DNA of 64,000 bases from Candidatus Parcubacteria bacterium. Its GTDB lineage: Bacteria; Patescibacteriota; Minisyncoccia; Sungbacterales; SURF-37. The translations under genes and the position numbers were made by a program. The stretch lies in NCBI GenBank assembly GCA_003599755.1, contig QZJO01000011.1:2424-66423 (forward strand). The letters run 5' to 3'. Below the pieces are notes generated by a model. That model ran no database searches. It saw nothing but the letters and a program-made list of their open reading frames with translations, and was not told the DNA's origin. Shown here one piece after another: positions 42,009 to 50,192 of this stretch (its first letter is position 1; the number at the start of each line of letters is the position of its first letter).

Positions 42009-42335
42009 CTAGCGGATCGATGCACCGGGCGGCACCTCGCGGTCCGGCACGAGGAGGGCCGGTCCATCCCCGGAATCCGCCGCTAACAGCATGCCCTGGC
42101 TCTCTAAGCCCATGAGGGCGCGGGGCTCAAGATTCGCAACAATGATGATCTGGCGGCCGATCAGCGTATCGGGTTCGTAGCGCTTGCCGATGCCGGCCAG
42201 GATCTGGCGCTCCCCGATCTCGGCGCCGAGATCCACGCGGAGCTTCAGGAGTTTTTCCGATCCCTCTACGCGTTCGGCTTCGCGAATGGTTCCGGCGCGG
42301 AGATCGATTTTTTTGAAATCGTCGAATGGGATCAT
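42009..42335 (-). CDS. csaA: tRNA-binding protein (CsaA/Trbp111, EMAP-II-like OB fold)
   Basis: FKKIDLRAGTIREAERVEGSEKLLKLRVDLG...RQIIIVANLEPRALMGLESQGMLLAA is the canonical tRNA-binding OB-fold pattern. Confidence 0.8.
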   Translation of the reverse strand: MIPFDDFKKIDLRAGTIREAERVEGSEKLLKLRVDLGAEIGERQILAGIGKRYEPDTLIGRQIIIVANLEPRALMGLESQGMLLAADSGDGPALLVPDREVPPGASIR

Positions 42336-42338
42336 GTT

Positions 42339-42782
42339 TCAGAATTCGTGGAGCCCTTCGAAATTCGCAAAAAATTTTCTGATCGCAATCTGACTGCTCT
42401 CAGCAGCACGCAGATGATTGACCGTCATCGAGGCCTTTTGAAGTTCGTTGGCAAAAAATTCCTGCTCTTTCTCGGACGTATCGAATTTCGGGCTGCCGTA
42501 TGCCCCGCAATCGGCATGGACCATAAGGCCGATGGCTCTGGGCTTGTGGAGCTTGATGGATTTGGCGATCTGATCGAGTAGATATACGCGATCGGTCTCG
42601 CCCGGCTGGCCGGCAAGGCCCTTGGCGCCGCCGGCGACTTTGATGAGGTCCACGTGCTGCCAGCCCTGCCTTGCGACCAGTTCCCCGAGGAGCGGCGAGA
42701 ATCGATCATCGAAGCACCAGATGATGCAAATGTCGGCTTCGTAATGATGGGCATCGGACGGATGCGGGAGAATGGTTTGCAT
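42339..42782 (-). CDS. Beta-class carbonic anhydrase, minimal Cab-type (147 aa)
   Basis: Zinc-ligand and dyad motifs CIIWCFDDRF (C-x-D-x-R) and MVHADCGAYG (H-x-x-C-G), plus KVAGGA, compared by eye to archaeal Cab (CIITCMDSRL, VGHTDCGMA, VIKNAGN). Confidence 0.65.
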   Translation of the reverse strand: MQTILPHPSDAHHYEADICIIWCFDDRFSPLLGELVARQGWQHVDLIKVAGGAKGLAGQPGETDRVYLLDQIAKSIKLHKPRAIGLMVHADCGAYGSPKFDTSEKEQEFFANELQKASMTVNHLRAAESSQIAIRKFFANFEGLHEF

Positions 42783-42855
42783 GGATTTTTTCTACACCAA
42801 AACGCCATTAAAGGGAATCCGCGGACGGCGACTGTGCCGTCCGCGGAGTTCGAGA

Positions 42856-43584
42856 TCACTGCTCGCCCTGTTCGTAGGGCAATGCCGATAGGAGTTGCAT
42901 CCGTTCGCCGGATGCGAGCCAGGCCTCCCAGCGCTGGGGATCGACGAAGTACGATCGCTTCGTACCGTGGCGCCAGATGGAGCAGTTGATGCGGAGCCAG
43001 AGCATGATCCGGCCGAGTATCGAGCGATACGCGTACCCCGCTTCCTGATAGCGGAACCTCCGGAAGTGCTGTACGCCCCACGAAATCTGGATGCAGGGAG
43101 CGATGGCGAACCGCTTGCCGGCATCCTCGCCGAGCTCTTCTTCGGCGGCGGCCCGGATGCGGCGCTTGGCGGCGACGATGCCGCCGATCACCTGCTCGGG
43201 ATCCATCTTATGCGCGTGCGCCGCGCCGCAGGGCGCATGGCCGAGCGCGATGACCACGTCGATGTTCTTGAGCTTGAGGCCCTTGATGATGTGACGCACG
43301 AGGACTGCGCCGTCGGGCAGGCCGACGCTGAGCGGCGAATCCTCGGGCGCGAGGAGCGGACCGCCGTTGAGTGCAACCAGGTGCACGCGCGGACCGTTGC
43401 CGTGGCGCCGGCAGATGCCGGACAGGAAATCGAACACGTCTTCACTTTGGTCTCCGTCGCCGCAGATTGCGGCGACCACGCCCTGCTGCGGTTGGAGCCG
43501 GTGGCCGTCGACGTCCTTCAAGACGCCGAAGCGCCGCATCGCGCGATACTCCATTGCGTGGCGAAGGGTGAGCGCGAGGCCCAA
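42856..43584 (-). CDS. Divergent beta-carbonic-anhydrase-family paralog with altered dyad (C-G-D-G-D) and 100-aa C-terminal extension
   Basis: AAICGDGDQ ... VHLVALNGGP ... VVIALGHAPCGAAHAH keeps the Cys/His/Cys ligand spacing, but the conserved Arg of CxDxR is replaced by Asp. Start may be an internal Met. Confidence 0.5.
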   Translation of the reverse strand: MGLALTLRHAMEYRAMRRFGVLKDVDGHRLQPQQGVVAAICGDGDQSEDVFDFLSGICRRHGNGPRVHLVALNGGPLLAPEDSPLSVGLPDGAVLVRHIIKGLKLKNIDVVIALGHAPCGAAHAHKMDPEQVIGGIVAAKRRIRAAAEEELGEDAGKRFAIAPCIQISWGVQHFRRFRYQEAGYAYRSILGRIMLWLRINCSIWRHGTKRSYFVDPQRWEAWLASGERMQLLSALPYEQGEQ

Positions 43585-43723
43585 GCGGTATCCTCCCTTG
43601 GAAAGGGTTGGTAGCGTGCTCGTGAGCGGATTTGCTCACCGCCGCATCTTCCTTCTGGAATTCGAATATGTCAAGGGCGCCGCTACGCGAAATAGCCGCA
43701 TTTATGTGCGTTTTTTGCCTTAA

Positions 43724-43963
43724 CTAATCGAGGAGTACCTTTACGTGGTTCTCGGCGTCCATTTCCAAAAATCCCCCGCTTGTCGCAAGTTCTTTTTTTG
43801 AGCCGTCGGGCGCGGTGATGACCGCCTCGCCCGGCGCAAGCACGGTGATGAGCGGCCGATGGTGATCCAAAATCGTGATCTCGCCGCTTTGGGTTTTGAC
43901 GGTGAAGGCAGAGGCCTCGCCGTCGAAATCCACGCCGCGTAATGATGCAATGGTGAGCTTCAT
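43724..43963 (-). CDS. atpC: F0F1 ATP synthase subunit epsilon, N-terminal beta-sandwich domain only (79 aa)
   Basis: MKLTIASLRGVDFDGEASAFTVKTQSGEITILDHHRPLITVLAPGEAVI... is the typical epsilon N-domain; no C-terminal helical hairpin. Confidence 0.75.
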   Translation of the reverse strand: MKLTIASLRGVDFDGEASAFTVKTQSGEITILDHHRPLITVLAPGEAVITAPDGSKKELATSGGFLEMDAENHVKVLLD

Positions 43964-43971
43964 ACTTGTGC

Positions 43972-44268
43972 CTATGTGGCGTCTTCAAAATCTATGCCGA
44001 TGGAACCCGCATCCATCGCGCCGATTTTTTCGGCCGCAGATCTGTGCAGCGGATGGTTTCGATATGCGTCCAGTGCATCTCGATCGCGTACCATTACAAC
44101 GAATGCGTGCGTATATCCTTCATTCCATTTCGAGAAGTTTTTGCCGCACCGAATATCGATGATGCCATCGATCTGTCCTTTGAGCGTCCGAATGTCTTTC
44201 ATGATAGAGATAGTTTCCTCTTCTGTCGTGCCAGGTTTCCAACGGAATATCGCGATATGCGTGATCAT
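43972..44268 (-). CDS. Dabb-family stress-responsive dimeric alpha/beta-barrel protein, inserted between atpD and atpC
   Basis: MITHIAIFRWKPGTTEEE...GYTHAFVVMVRDRDALDAYRNHPLH matches the Dabb (stress-responsive A/B barrel) signature. Confidence 0.7.
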   Translation of the reverse strand: MITHIAIFRWKPGTTEEETISIMKDIRTLKGQIDGIIDIRCGKNFSKWNEGYTHAFVVMVRDRDALDAYRNHPLHRSAAEKIGAMDAGSIGIDFEDAT

Positions 44269-44277
44269 GAGTGTTTA

Positions 44278-44303
44278 TTCTAATGTTCTTAAGAACATTA
44301 GAA
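44278..44303. repeat. Perfect 26-bp palindrome TTCTAATGTTCTTAAGAACATTAGAA between atpD and the Dabb gene
   Basis: Read directly; the right half is the exact reverse complement of the left. 10 nt upstream of the Dabb start codon. Confidence 0.7.
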
Positions 44304-44351
44304 TGTACTTTGCGGATGCTGGCCGATAACTTAATGACCAGTGACCAATGA

Positions 44352-45776
<1,425 letters not shown>

Positions 45777-46718
45777 CTATGCCAGTGCGCTTTGCGTTGA
45801 GGTAATTTCGATCAGTTCCTTGGTAATGGCTGCTTGGCGCGCCTTGTTGAACTCGATCAAAAGCTTCCCGGAAATGTCATCGGCGTTATCCGATGCATTT
45901 TTCATCGCCACGCGGCGCGCGGAATGTTCCGAGGCGTTGGCCTCGAGCACAAGGTCGTAGATTTGCATGCGAATCAAGTGCGGCACAAGCGCGGCCAGCG
46001 CTTCGGCCGGGGACGGTTCGAAAATAAATTCGATCGGCTCGGCGTTGCGCCCGCCCGCTTCCGGGCTTTTGCCGAGCTCGGCGAAGCGGCCATGTTCGGG
46101 CACGATCTCATCCACGGTTTCGCGGATTTTTGCCATATCGGTCGGCAGGATTTGGCGGGCAAGCGGATCTTGGCGCAGCGTCGTGCGAAAATGCGTGGAA
46201 ATTGTCATGACGCGGTCCCAGGAGCCATCGACAAATCCTTGGACCAAAAGATCGGCAAGCGGCGTGATCTCTTCGGTATCGGCATAATCGCCAAAGCCCT
46301 CGAAGCGGGCGACAATATTCCAATTTCGTTTCTCGGCATAGCGGATCGCCTTGCGGCCCACCGCAATGACCACGAAACGATGGTCGGCGTCGGTACGGTA
46401 TTCGTCGGTCGCGAGCAATTCCTCCATTTTGCGGAATACTTGCGTGTTGAACGAGCCGGCGAGCCCTCGATCCGAGGCGACAAGCAGCAAAGCGGTTGCG
46501 GCGATCGGTCGCGCGGCCATGAGCGGCGAGAGAATCGGAGCGTTCGCCGATACGCGGCCGAGAATTTCAAGCGCCAAAAAAGCGTACGCGCGCGAGGCGA
46601 GCGCGAGTTCTTGGGCGCGGCGCATCTTCGTGGCCGAGACCACTTCCATGGCACGCGTAATCTGGCCGATGTTTTGGACCGCGCGGCGGCGGGATTTGAT
46701 TGTCTGGAGAGATTCCAT
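45777..46718 (-). CDS. atpG: F0F1 ATP synthase subunit gamma
   Basis: MESLQTIKSRRRAVQNIGQITRAMEVVSATKMRRAQ... and C-terminal ...ITKELIEI. Confidence 0.9.
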   Translation of the reverse strand: MESLQTIKSRRRAVQNIGQITRAMEVVSATKMRRAQELALASRAYAFLALEILGRVSANAPILSPLMAARPIAATALLLVASDRGLAGSFNTQVFRKMEELLATDEYRTDADHRFVVIAVGRKAIRYAEKRNWNIVARFEGFGDYADTEEITPLADLLVQGFVDGSWDRVMTISTHFRTTLRQDPLARQILPTDMAKIRETVDEIVPEHGRFAELGKSPEAGGRNAEPIEFIFEPSPAEALAALVPHLIRMQIYDLVLEANASEHSARRVAMKNASDNADDISGKLLIEFNKARQAAITKELIEITSTQSALA

Positions 46719-46720
46719 GG

Positions 46721-48247
46721 TTACATGCGCTTGGCTTCCTCGATCGCAGCCGTAAGCGCGGCTTCGGCCGCATCATCCAATGCGCCGGATTTGGCGATTG
46801 GCGCGAGAATAGTATCGCGGTAGCGTTTGTCGAGATAATCGAGGAGTTTGGCCTCGAACGCTTTGACGTCGGCGATGGCGATATCATCCAAATATCCATT
46901 GAGTGCCGCATAGAGCACTACCACTTGTCGCTCGAACGGCACGGGTTCGATGTCGGATTGCTTAAGAATTTCCGTGAGCAGTTCGCCGCGGCGAATTTTT
47001 GCTTTTGTCGCCTCGTCCAGATCCGACGCAAACTGCACGAATGCGGCCAGTTCCCGGAATTGCGCGAGTTCGAGGCGCAAGCGGCCAGCAACTTTTTTCA
47101 TGGCTTTAGTCTGGGCGGTCGAGCCGACGCGCGACACCGAGATGCCGACGTTGACCGCCGGCCGGATGCCGGCGAAAAAGAGTTCGCTCTGGAGGAAAAT
47201 CTGGCCATCGGTGATGGAGATGACGTTGGTCGGAATGTAGGCGGCCACGTCGCCCAGCTTCGTTTCGATAATCGGCAGCGCGGTCAGCGATCCCCCGCCG
47301 TGCTCTTCAGAGAGCTTGGCCGCGCGCTCCAAGAGCCGGGAATGGAGATAGAAAATATCGCCCGGATACGCTTCGCGCCCCGGCGGGCGGCGAAGCAATA
47401 GCGACAATTGGCGATAGGCATCGGCATGCTTGGAAAGATCATCGTAGACCACGAGCGCGTCTTGGCCGCTTTCCATGAAGTATTCGCCGATTGCCGCGCC
47501 GGCGAATGGGGCCAAATATTGCAGCGCTGCCGGCGCAGATGCGGGGGCGGAGACGACGATCGTGTAGGCAAGCGCGCCCTGCTCTTCCAAGAGCTTCACG
47601 ATCTTGGCCACTTTGGAATTTTTCTGGCCGATGGCCACGTAGATGCAGATCACCTGGCGGCGGCCCGGATCTTGGCGCTGGTTCAGAATCGTATCGAGCG
47701 CGATCGCGGTTTTGCCGGTCTGGCGATCGCCGATAATAAGCTCGCGCTGGCCCCGGCCGATCGGAATCATCGCATCGATGGATTTGATGCCGGTGTGCAG
47801 CGGCACGTTGACCGACTCGCGCGCGACCACCGAGGGCGCGTTTTTCTCAAGGCGATTTCTTTGGGCGTTTGCGGCATCCTTGAATATGACGCCCTTGCCG
47901 TCGAGCGGTTCGCCGAGCGGATCGACCACCCGGCCGATAAGCTCGCGGCCCACGGGGATGGAAAGCACCGCGCCGGTTTTTTTCACGCGGTCGCCCACGC
48001 GTACCGCATCGGCATTGCCGAGGATAATCGCGCCGATAAACGCTTCTTCAAGGTTTGCCGCCAAGGCGGTCACCTCGCCCGATGCGGTTTCGATCGCCAA
48101 GAGTTCCTGCGAAACGGCCTCGCCGAGGCCGGATATTTTGGCGATGCCGTCCCCGGTTTCGGTCACGGTCCCGATGCGTTCAAATTCGGGCTCGTCACGG
48201 AAGCCGGCGATTTCGCGTTTCAGTTGTTCGACGATTTCGTGTGCCAT
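46721..48247 (-). CDS. atpA: F0F1 ATP synthase subunit alpha
   Basis: Walker [12 protein letters not shown]; alpha-subunit conserved blocks. Confidence 0.95.
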
Positions 48248-48262
48248 GCTGCAGTCAGTGTG

Positions 48263-48649
48263 TTATCGCGATCCGGAGAACAGGCGGTTGAGTTTGCGCG
48301 CGAATGACATATCGAGCTCTTCTTCGCCGTCGACGGTGACGCGCGCGCCGGCGATGAGCGACGGATCGACGGCCGTCTCGACATGATCGGGCGCGGGAAA
48401 GCGCTTGCGGAATCGTGCGACGATTTCGTTGGATGCCGGCCGCGCGAACGTCACGCGGACCCAGCGGCCGCCGCGGCTTTTGACCAAGCGTCGTTCGATG
48501 GCCGCGACGATATCGTTCGCGCGCGATAGGTCGCCGTGCTTGGCGACCGCTTGGACGAATCGGCGCACGATGCGGGCGTGCTGGCCGGCAGGCGCTTCGT
48601 CGATGGCGGCAAGGAAAGCAGCTGCGTAGCGATCCGTAGTATGGCGCAT
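48263..48649 (-). CDS. atpH: F0F1 ATP synthase subunit delta (OSCP), short form (128 aa)
   Basis: Positional (between atpF and atpA) and OSCP-like start (YAAAFLAAIDE...); unusually short. Confidence 0.65.
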   Translation of the reverse strand: MRHTTDRYAAAFLAAIDEAPAGQHARIVRRFVQAVAKHGDLSRANDIVAAIERRLVKSRGGRWVRVTFARPASNEIVARFRKRFPAPDHVETAVDPSLIAGARVTVDGEEELDMSFARKLNRLFSGSR

Positions 48650-48654
48650 AGCGG

Positions 48655-49146
48655 TCAGCGGCTTTCGAGCGCTCGACGAATGAGCGCTTCGTCCACGGCC
48701 TTGGGATCTAGTTCGACGGTTTTGGCGATTGCCGCACGGATGATGCCCTGCGCCTCGCGGGAGACCGCATCAAGGGAGGCCAGTCGCTGGCGTTCGAGGG
48801 TTTGGGCCGCTTGGCGGGCGACCTCGTCTGATTTTTTCATCGCCACGGCGAGGATTTCTTGGGCGCGGTGCTTGCCCTCGCCCTCGGCTTTGCCGATGAT
48901 CTCGGCTGCTGCGGCGTCGGCTTCGAGGAGTTTCGCGGTGCGTTCTTCTTCGATCGCGGCAAGGCGGCGTTCCGCTTCTGCGGCGCCGGCGAGGCCGAAT
49001 TCGATCCGCTGGCGGCGCTCGGCCAATAGCGCCAAGAGCGGGCGCCAGACCAAGAAAGTGAGCGCGGCGAGGATTAAAAAGAAATTAACTCCCTGCGCGA
49101 TGAGGAGCCGCCAATCGATACCGAGTTGGTGGAAGAGATCGGACAC
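48655..49146 (-). CDS. atpF: F0F1 ATP synthase subunit b
   Basis: Single N-terminal TM helix then a long charged alpha-helix; positional. Confidence 0.8.
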   Translation of the reverse strand: MSDLFHQLGIDWRLLIAQGVNFFLILAALTFLVWRPLLALLAERRQRIEFGLAGAAEAERRLAAIEEERTAKLLEADAAAAEIIGKAEGEGKHRAQEILAVAMKKSDEVARQAAQTLERQRLASLDAVSREAQGIIRAAIAKTVELDPKAVDEALIRRALESR

Positions 49147-49161
49147 GGAACGCGAACGTTG

Positions 49162-49392
49162 TTATTCAACGAATTTGAGGATGAGCGCGGTTACCAGCGC
49201 ATAGATGGCGATGGCTTCGGCAAACGCGATCGCGAGAATCATCGCGGTCTGGACTTTGGGGGCTGCCTCGGGGTTGCGGCCAATGGCATCGGCGCCTTTC
49301 GAGCCGATCCAGCCGATGGCAACCGCCGGCGCGATCGTGCCGAGCGCCATGATGCCGGCGATCGCGAAGAGTCGAGCGGTTTCTGCTTCCAT
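49162..49392 (-). CDS. atpE: F0F1 ATP synthase subunit c
   Basis: Two-helix hairpin with GxGxGxG packing motif and conserved carboxylate (AIAFAEAIAIYALV). Confidence 0.9.
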   Translation of the reverse strand: MEAETARLFAIAGIMALGTIAPAVAIGWIGSKGADAIGRNPEAAPKVQTAMILAIAFAEAIAIYALVTALILKFVE

Positions 49393-49442
49393 GGGTTCTT
49401 TCTTGCGGAATTAAGCGGAACGACCTTTATCAATCATGCCGG

Positions 49443-50192
49443 TCAGTGATGCGCGGCATCTTCCCGTACGGCTGACGCGATGAACACGAGCGTCAGCATG
49501 GAAAAGATGAGCGCCTGCACGAACCCGACGAAGATTTCCAAAAAAAGAAACGGCAGGGGGATGAAGTATGGGACGAGGAATCCGACGATCGTCAGCAATA
49601 CTTCCCCTGCGAATACGTTCCCGAACAACCGGAACGAGAACGAGATGATCTTAACAAATTCGGAGATAAATTCAAGGATTCCGGCGAAGGTGAGGATCGG
49701 GCTTTGGAGCGTGAAAAACTTCCCGAAATGGCGGAAAAAGCCGATTGCGGTTACGCCCAGGATGTTGGTCGCGAAGACCGATATAACCGCAAGCGCCAGC
49801 GTGAAGTTGAGGTCCGCCGCCGGAGCGCGGAACAGCGGCACCAAGACGCGATGGCCGTCGTGTTCCTGATATAGGCCGATGGATCCGATGCCCGGCAGAA
49901 GGCCGAGCCAGTTGGATATAAGAATGAAGAGAAAGACGGTGGCGATGAGCGGGAAGTAGCGTACGGACAGGTGCCGGCTGCCGAACAGCGTATCCATGAG
50001 CCCAAGCCCCTGCTCAATGAAGAGCTCGACGATGCTTTGCAGCCTTCCCGGTACAGGGGCCAGCGAGCGGCGCAGCGCAAAACCAATCGCGGCGAGAAGC
50101 AACACCGCGATGGTGGAAAGCAGGAGGGCGTTGGTGACCGCGAGCGGTCCGAGGTGAAAAAGTTCTTCGGCGCGGATGGATATTTCGGGCAT
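49443..50192 (-). CDS. atpB: F0F1 ATP synthase subunit a
   Basis: Five-TM subunit-a pattern with the conserved Arg in the penultimate helix (FSFRLFGNVFAGE). Confidence 0.9.
   Translation of the reverse strand: MPEISIRAEELFHLGPLAVTNALLLSTIAVLLLAAIGFALRRSLAPVPGRLQSIVELFIEQGLGLMDTLFGSRHLSVRYFPLIATVFLFILISNWLGLLPGIGSIGLYQEHDGHRVLVPLFRAPAADLNFTLALAVISVFATNILGVTAIGFFRHFGKFFTLQSPILTFAGILEFISEFVKIISFSFRLFGNVFAGEVLLTIVGFLVPYFIPLPFLFLEIFVGFVQALIFSMLTLVFIASAVREDAAHH

Follow-up and report, generated by a model that had tools for sequence, protein, structure and literature searches.

Organization of the locus

The window analyzed here is a 64,000-nt stretch of DNA (contig QZJO01000011.1, positions 2,424 to 66,423) from a Candidatus Parcubacteria metagenome-assembled genome of the Candidate Phyla Radiation (CPR). 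Two genes on its minus strand, whose products are predicted to have the fold of beta-carbonic anhydrases (beta-CAs), are the subject of this work. The first encodes protein 1 (147 aa, 42339..42782), a member of the family PF20393; the second encodes protein 2 (242 aa, 42856..43584), which begins with a TTG codon and belongs to an unannotated family homologous to PF20393. Both open reading frames (ORFs) are real, and the coordinates and motifs given for them in a previous sequence-only reading of this DNA were confirmed. In the direction of transcription, the gene of protein 2 precedes that of protein 1, and the genes follow in the order atpB-E-F-H-A-G-D, Dabb, atpC, protein 2, protein 1, a tRNA-binding-domain gene, bPH_2, a 71-aa ORF and DUF5654. 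The pair therefore lies at the 3′ end of the ATP synthase operon, downstream of atpC (epsilon subunit, 79 aa, 43724..43963, minus strand), and not upstream of the operon, where the sequence-only reading had put it. No transmembrane or hydrophobic segment was found in either protein (maximum Kyte-Doolittle 19-residue average 1.1), and both are predicted to be soluble and cytoplasmic.

Protein 1 and the PF20393 family

Protein 1 was recognized by PF20393 (Pro_CA_2, "putative carbonic anhydrase") with 31.5 bits against a cut-off of 30 (E = 2.3e-7). Its relatives (family 1) had in 53 out of 55 cases already been annotated as PF20393, and a few of them are named 'carbonic anhydrase' at source. A literature search for PF20393 found no relevant paper, and neither protein 1 nor protein 2 matched any NCBIfam model.

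The sequence of protein 1 contains the motifs ADICIIWCFDDRF, IKVAGGAKG and LMVHADCGAYG. The putative zinc ligands are C23 (codon 42714-16), H89 (42516-18) and C92 (42507-09), and the putative catalytic dyad is formed by D25 (42708-10) and R27 (42702-04), all on the minus strand. These five residues were invariant in 30 aligned relatives, as were Y14, D45, AGGA(50-53), L78, H79, G93, A94 and Y95, and the patterns CxDxR and HxxCG were present in all 55 relatives.

Protein 2 and its family

Protein 2 contains the motifs AAICGDGDQ and ALGHAPCGAAHAH. In the public annotation (C4552_03690) it has 232 aa and starts at 43554, at an ATG without a Shine-Dalgarno sequence comparable to that located before the TTG (AAGGGAGGA, 43591..43599, minus strand, with a 6-nt spacer). 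The N-termini of homologues also match the length of protein 2 when it is read from the TTG at 43584. Because of this strong Shine-Dalgarno sequence and the N-terminal length of the homologues, the 242-aa form was preferred to the 232-aa one, and the public annotation probably starts the protein ten codons late. The residue numbers of family 2, as the relatives of protein 2 are called below, are given in the 232-aa numbering, to which 10 is added to obtain the 242-aa numbering.

Pfam offers little for this family. Protein 2 remained below the threshold of PF00484, the beta-CA family (13.5 bits against 25.7), and weak matches to it were found in 3 of 23 family-2 members, the best with E = 0.0041. 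The PF20393 threshold was not reached by protein 2 either, and one of the 23 members matched this model, at E = 0.091. The relatives carry no Pfam domain and are nearly all annotated as 'hypothetical'. An exhaustive profile search found 768 representatives at 50% identity with E <= 1e-3, including 617 with E <= 1e-10, and all named sources of family-2 members were Patescibacteria. Family 2 is apparently a sizeable, unannotated and CPR-restricted family.

Its homology to family 1 was found by hhalign, with a probability of 94.4% and E = 9e-8 over 105 columns; BLASTP gave 32% identity over 44 aa. The median length of family 2 is 191 aa. The extra length of protein 2 had been described as a C-terminal extension of about 100 aa, which does not agree with our results: about 18 residues are added at the N-terminus, some 40 aa form a helical insertion, and a short tail, also helical, follows at the end. 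The insertion is located between the last two beta-strands and is shared only by the four closest relatives.

A likeness of protein 2 residues 26-94 to transcription activator-like (TAL) effectors (phmmer E = 3.5e-14) was rejected as an artefact and not homology. The match is the sum of many weak matches to the 34-aa repeat, each with an i-Evalue of 0.33 or worse.

Tandem duplicates of family 2 were also observed at three loci with no atp genes nearby (L124:1530-3004, L126:1458-2932 and L098:3959-5363).

Predicted folds and active-site residues

AlphaFold2 models built from the family alignments had predicted local distance difference test scores of 95.2 for protein 1 and 92.4 for protein 2. 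In Foldseek searches of the PDB, the matches of both were near-exclusively beta-CAs, with probabilities of 0.96-1.00 and E-values of about 1e-4 to 1e-3. The top matches of protein 1 were Rv1284 and Cab (E about 2e-4, probability 1.00), and those of protein 2 were CafC, TvaCA1, HICA and CafD. Both models show the arrangement known from beta-CAs: the first Cys stands immediately behind strand 1, the His is at the end of strand 3, and the second Cys lies three positions further on. Judging from these models, both proteins have a beta-CA fold, in line with what the sequence-only reading had proposed.

The same reading had equated the Cys and His residues of the two proteins with the zinc ligands of beta-CAs, and the alignments are in register with this proposal. 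The family-1 profile aligned weakly with Rv1284 at HxxCG and with Cab in the Cys32 region. In hhalign comparisons with E. coli Can, C23/D25/R27/H89/C92 of protein 1 paired with C42/D44/R46/H98/C101, and the same five positions of Can paired with C31/D33/D35/H106/C109 of family 2. The Cys, Asp, His and Cys of both families thus appear to be equivalent to the beta-CA site residues, with a consistent register and weak alignment statistics. The two outcomes that the sequence-only reading had named as refuting it, a fold other than that of beta-CAs and Cys/His residues out of step with the zinc ligands, were thus both looked for and not obtained. Protein 1 has a Cys-to-His spacing of 66 aa and protein 2 one of 75 aa, as had been read before, and each value equals the median of the family concerned.

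Conservation within family 2 was assessed in 244 diverse sequences. C31, D33, G64, G65, H106 and C109 were conserved in 100% of them, H58, K96 and P108 in 98%, Y202 in 95%, H156 in 90%, N63 in 87% and D35 in 85%. In the 242-aa numbering of protein 2, the site residues are C41, D43, H116 and C119, and the near-invariant family positions are H68, K106 and Y212; at the position of H156, the window protein has Gln (Q166).

The position of the dyad Arg is occupied in protein 2 by D45 or Q46 (242-aa numbering). The sequence-only reading had stated that the Arg is replaced by Asp. The absence of Arg from the window protein stands in either register, but the replacing residue is ambiguous: it is Asp if D35 is set against Arg46 of Can, and Gln if the +5 position is taken. 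The second register comes from the hhalign comparison of families 1 and 2, where a one-residue insertion in family 2 makes R27 pair with +5. The motif of the family is C-[GAS]-D-G-D-Q, with Gln at +5 in 90 of 117 sequences and Arg in 9 of 117, and several atp-linked members have C-x-D-G/C-D-R, with the Arg one position later. Based on these alignments, the lack of the Arg characterizes the family as a whole and is not a private mutation of protein 2. A decaying pseudo-enzyme was considered for protein 2 and ruled out, since the metal site and the extra polar residues are 95-100% conserved across the family, and such strict conservation argues against decay.

Genomic context in CPR and other lineages

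To describe the context of PF20393, one genome per species was scanned; relatives were found in 364 genomes, and 80 loci were analyzed (39 from CPR or unlabelled genomes, 40 from Acidobacteriota and one from Actinomycetota). In 38 of the 39 CPR or unlabelled loci, the gene next after atpC is PF20393, with the same orientation and in the order atpA-G-D-C-PF20393. The gap between atpC and PF20393 had a median of 25 bp and was <=20 bp or overlapping in 22 of 46 cases, and these junctions look translationally coupled. This near-universal placement had been missed by the sequence-only reading. Literature searches on CA with CPR and ATP synthase, and on CPR epsilon subunits, returned nothing relevant and no report of a CA-like gene in CPR atp operons. 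Both the placement of PF20393 after atpC in CPR and the Arg-less family 2 are new here, being undescribed in the literature searched.

In the non-CPR loci (L026-L087 set), a conserved protein of about 170-180 aa without a Pfam hit was observed directly 3′ of PF20393 on the same strand in 30 of 41 cases. It was often followed by a Glyco_trans_1_3 glycosyltransferase and a PAP2 phosphatase.

Sungbacteria-like relatives (53-56% identity; P0003 and P0006) have atpBEFHAGDC-PF20393-...-tRNA_bind-DUF5654-YknX-ABC-FtsX. This is the backbone of the window minus protein 2 and Dabb. The protein-2 orthologue of these relatives (55-57% identity) is located elsewhere, beside truB, and is unlinked to PF20393. 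The GC content at third codon positions (GC3) is 0.84 for protein 2 and 0.54 for Dabb, against 0.66 (protein 1) to 0.75 for their operon neighbours. Because of the deviant GC3 and the backbone without them in relatives, protein 2 and Dabb look like insertions, and we suggest that protein 2 was inserted between atpC and protein 1 in the lineage of the window. Unannotated convergent genes of 179-184 aa beside PF20393 in Sungbacteria-like genomes were checked as possible family-2 members and proved to encode unrelated membrane proteins.

The survey centred on family 2 covered 51 loci, 27 of them with sufficient flanking sequence, and a metagenome scan was made with a tighter family-2 sub-alignment. 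Family 2 adjoined atp genes and/or PF20393 in 12 of the 27 informative loci, and neither was beside it in the other 15. Several arrangements were found. In eight loci (L096, L108, L114, L116, L117, L120, L121 and L127), atpC is followed by family 2 with no PF20393 between them; the succession is direct in seven of them, with a gap of 1 nt in L096, and L116 has a gap of about 0.8 kb. In a further set, PF20393 follows atpC and family 2 is convergent to it (L004-6, L011, L014, L015, L019, L046, L101, L103, L110, L112, L115, L118, L131, L134, L136 and L137). PF20393 is followed by a co-directional family-2 gene in L037, L040, L042, L111 and L132. The order atpC, family 2, PF20393 occurs in the window only.

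A third beta-CA-like paralog type (about 145-165 aa, no Pfam hit) shows the pattern C-S-D-R-R ... P-G-G/A ... H-N-x-C, with no Gly after the Cys. It is located directly downstream of PF20393 in some Paceibacteria-like genomes (L029:7461-7943, L031:7463-7963, L033:1731-2222 and L048:7526-7957).

It had been asked whether the pair is conserved in relatives. The two families are neighbours in many CPR lineages, in varied orientations, but are unlinked in the closest Sungbacteria-like relatives. Their pairing recurs without being obligatory, and each family is drawn, independently of the other, to the end of the atp operon.

Possible functions of the two proteins

Based on the above results, we tentatively suggest, with slightly less than even confidence, that protein 1 is active as a CO2/bicarbonate enzyme and is expressed together with the ATPase, and that protein 2 is a paralog with a rewired or closed site. 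Protein 1 has the full set of catalytic residues of beta-CAs, namely those of the Cys-His-Cys zinc ligands and of the Asp-Arg dyad, which in these enzymes holds the zinc-bound water or hydroxide. Most likely it is an active zinc enzyme catalyzing CO2 + H2O <-> HCO3- + H+, its zinc binding and CA activity being inferred. Since PF20393 is an integral terminal gene of the CPR atp operon, its expression appears tied to the ATPase.

The epsilon subunit of the window consists of the N-terminal beta-sandwich only and is without the C-terminal helical regulatory domain. The c-subunit motif is AFAEAIAIY, with no Ser/Thr following the carboxylate, which, from what is known of this motif, suggests an H+-coupled ATPase. 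Protein 1 would equilibrate CO2, bicarbonate and protons at the cytoplasmic face, where protons enter or leave this apparently H+-coupled ATPase, which is without the epsilon C-terminal domain. Speculatively, a CA located next to the ATPase could supply protons or buffer them, or could determine the local bicarbonate, and bicarbonate may itself be an activating oxyanion of the ATPase. Oxyanions including bicarbonate relieve F1 inhibition, and in P. denitrificans the loss of the epsilon C-terminal domain increased the sensitivity to oxyanions (PMC3603449, PMC8039183).

By its structural matches, protein 1 is closest to the clade-D enzymes Cab of M. thermoautotrophicum (PDB 1G5C) and Rv1284 of M. 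tuberculosis (PDB 1YLK). It shares with them the minimal size (about 150-170 aa), the order C-x-D-x-R ... H-x-x-C-G and a similar secondary-structure context. It differs in having no significant sequence similarity to them, no PF00484 match and a Cys-to-His spacing longer than the 55 aa of Cab, and PF20393 has invariant residues of its own (Y14, D45, H79 and Y95). In its working, protein 1 may resemble a minimal beta-CA of the Cab/Rv1284 type, yet it belongs to PF20393 and not to PF00484.

For protein 2, two options are predicted. In the first, its zinc site is closed, with Cys2-His-Asp ligation, and constitutive CA activity is low or absent; in the second, the site is rewired around the near-invariant His, Lys and Tyr of the family (H58, K96 and Y202; 232-aa numbering). 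In beta-CAs, the gatekeeper Arg keeps the Asp from ligating zinc. The beta-CA-like protein DabA2 is impaired when its dyad is mutated (PMC13144422). What is predicted for protein 2 is the closed T-state of type II enzymes (E. coli Can and H. influenzae HICA), with which it shares the beta-CA fold; in this state the dyad is disrupted, the Asp becomes a zinc ligand and activity is lost. However, type II enzymes still have the Arg, and their switch is reversible and responds to pH and bicarbonate, whereas family 2 is constitutively without the Arg and is not recognized by PF00484. It should be noted that this closed site, like any coupling to the ATPase, is an inference. Protein 2 is taken here as a functionally distinct paralog, which may be gated, regulatory or specific to a different substrate, and its placement in the same physiological context as protein 1 is suggested by the recurrent attachment of family 2 to the atp operon. 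The chemistry of the pair is probably ordinary.

Several observations weigh against this explanation. The sequence-only reading had called protein 1 a canonical Cab-type enzyme, a description we could not maintain: protein 1 has no PF00484 match in the Pfam scan, nor does protein 2 pass this model; it clears the PF20393 threshold by 1.5 bits only; and it has no significant sequence match to solved beta-CAs (best profile E = 0.065), of which protein 2 likewise finds none by sequence. The query-normalized TM-scores of the Foldseek matches are modest (0.44-0.61 for protein 1 and 0.24-0.40 for protein 2), and the hhalign probabilities against E. coli Can and CynT are low, because the template holds two sequences only. 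PF20393 and family 2 are without a single characterized (assayed) member. Variants of Cab with the dyad Arg changed to Ala keep some activity, and the loss of the Arg in family 2 need not abolish catalysis. The link to the ATPase is also open to objection. An atp gene was near PF20393 in none of the 40 Acidobacteriota loci and not in the single Actinomycetota locus; these genes without atp linkage indicate that PF20393 chemistry is independent of the ATPase. Their Acidobacteriota neighbours (an unknown 179-aa protein, a glycosyltransferase and PAP2) offer no clue to CO2.

Transcription in the window raises a further doubt. The spacer of about 140 bp between atpC and protein 2 contains a perfect -35-like hexamer, TTGACA (43669..43674, minus strand). 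The -10 element near it is weak and the site was not called by the consensus scan, but it may be a promoter of protein 2's own. Between proteins 2 and 1 there is a GC-rich hairpin (42818..42847, minus strand; 12-bp stem, free energy about -29 kcal/mol) followed by a moderately U-rich tract, which could be a terminator, an attenuator or an mRNA-stability element. With this stable hairpin and the possible promoter flanking protein 2, co-transcription of protein 1 with the atp genes in the window is plausible rather than evident.

Among the alternatives, a serious rival for protein 1 is a housekeeping CA that supplies bicarbonate for carboxylation, like E. coli Can, and rides on the constitutively expressed atp operon, with protein 2 as a functionally unrelated insert; as a whole we regard it as somewhat unlikely. 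It agrees with the lack of atp linkage in Acidobacteriota and with an operon tail that tolerates cargo, as the lineage-specific insertions of protein 2 and Dabb indicate. Further insertions within CPR atp operons are of the same kind (the GIY-YIG gene of L096 and the DUF5698 gene of L090). It does not readily explain why the adjacency of atpC and PF20393 is kept in 38 of 39 loci over many CPR lineages of deep divergence, the junctions being very short or even overlapping. Since a second, independent family (family 2) and the third paralog type share the same slot, hitch-hiking alone is hard to credit.

It is also conceivable, but quite unlikely, that the two proteins form a heteromeric enzyme, in which protein 2 is a catalytically dead partner dimerizing with protein 1. 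Beta-CAs are obligate dimers, and PF20393 and family 2 are recurrent neighbours in the convergent and co-directional loci listed above. CsoSCA, the carboxysomal beta-CA, and DabA2 provide precedents for intact and defunct beta-CA-like modules working together. Both of these are fused pseudo-dimers in one polypeptide, whereas the window encodes two separate small soluble proteins, and no fusion of PF20393 with family 2 was seen. Moreover, PF20393 is often not near family 2 (neither it nor atp genes in 15 of the 27 informative loci, and no PF20393 between atpC and family 2 in the eight loci listed above), and the closest orthologues of the pair are unlinked. The convergent orientation is common, which means that the genes are not co-translated, and the strictly conserved extra polar residues of family 2 point to a functional site of its own.

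A more far-reaching proposal, which we hold to be improbable, is that PF20393 and the Arg-less family are a true accessory module of the CPR F1Fo ATP synthase, coupling CO2/HCO3-/H+ chemistry to it physically or kinetically. Such a module might supply protons or bicarbonate, or act as a CO2/pH-sensing regulator replacing the epsilon C-terminal domain. It would be analogous to the gamma-CA subunits on plant complex I, to CupA/CupB on cyanobacterial NDH-1 and to DabA on DabB, all of which are CA-like modules on proton-translocating complexes. The likeness to gamma-CA/complex I and CupA/B is conceptual, CO2/bicarbonate chemistry beside a proton-handling machine; the folds and complexes are different, and what is shown here is operon linkage. 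DabA2, in the DAB complex, is the precedent for energetic coupling between a beta-CA-like protein and a membrane partner that translocates protons. Unlike the window proteins, DabA2 has a transmembrane finger and the partner DabB, and the neighbour in the window is a rotary ATPase and not an Mrp/Nuo-type subunit. Nor do the window proteins look like DabA (PF10070) themselves, as they are small single domains with no PF10070 match, no hydrophobic segment and no PF00361 neighbour.

A non-enzymatic accessory of the ATP synthase, that is, a regulatory or assembly subunit which, for example, offsets the missing epsilon C-terminal domain and whose zinc site is structural or sensory, is very unlikely. 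The epsilon subunit is 78-92 aa long in all 49 loci with PF20393 after atpC and has its full length (140-150 aa) in 4 of the 7 loci where family 2 directly follows atpC, and the atpC junctions look translationally coupled. However, all five catalytic residues are invariant in PF20393, more than a structural role would need, and PF20393 exists without atp linkage in Acidobacteriota. The relation between the loss of the epsilon C-terminal domain and the presence of PF20393 is only partly consistent and is confounded by phylogeny, and it was dropped as evidence.

An equally slight probability is given to a neofunctionalized hydrolase, in which protein 2 or both proteins act on a CO2 analogue (carbonyl sulfide (COS), CS2 or a cyanate-derived compound) at the beta-CA zinc site: the COS hydrolase 3vqj had the highest query TM-score for protein 1 (0.61) and the pocket of family 2 is remodelled and conserved, but 3vqj ranked only 26th by E-value, protein 2 lacks the Arg, known COS and CS2 hydrolases retain the Asp-Arg dyad, and no sulfur-metabolism or cyanase genes were neighbours in any locus examined.

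A large part of bacterial diversity belongs to the CPR, whose members have minimal genomes and acquire energy in ways that are poorly understood. A gene fixed at the end of the atp operon in such genomes is likely to matter for the use of the ATP synthase, and if the CA-like proteins are active, the equilibration of inorganic carbon and protons would be linked to the function of the CPR ATPase. In that case, being small and soluble, the proteins would also offer a tractable experimental entry point. The definition of family 2, which has a strictly conserved metal site and no Pfam or NCBIfam model, improves the annotation of hundreds of CPR genomes, and the family represents a natural experiment on a beta-CA site without the gatekeeper arginine.

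Other features of the locus

The remaining seven genes of the F1Fo operon occupy 44352..50192 on the minus strand: atpD (44352-45773), atpG (45777-46718), atpA (46721-48247), atpH (48263-48649), atpF (48655-49146), atpE (49162-49392) and atpB (49443-50192).

Downstream of protein 1 on the coding strand is a gene for a stand-alone tRNA-binding-domain protein (42009..42335, minus strand). The sequence-only reading had named it csaA. In our analysis, it passed the NCBIfam model of the MetG C-terminal tRNA-binding domain (122.4 bits, cut-off 116.65) and failed the CsaA model (74.5 bits, cut-off 119.65). Its ATG comes 3 nt after the stop codon of protein 1, and because of this, the two genes are probably translationally coupled. 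A tRNA_bind gene is also located downstream of PF20393 in the Sungbacteria-like relatives.

The gene for Dabb (stress-responsive A/B barrel; 43972..44268, minus strand) is located between atpD and atpC. It has a low GC content (0.485) and is lineage-specific, with no Dabb at this place in relatives. A 28-bp perfect AT-rich palindrome, ATTCTAATGTTCTTAAGAACATTAGAAT, lies directly upstream of it (44277-44304) and could be an operator or an insertion scar.

In other CPR genomes, genes were also observed between atpA and atpG: a GIY-YIG nuclease gene in Magasanikbacteria (L096:706-1086) and a DUF5698 gene in a Sungbacteria-like locus (L090:3359-3628).

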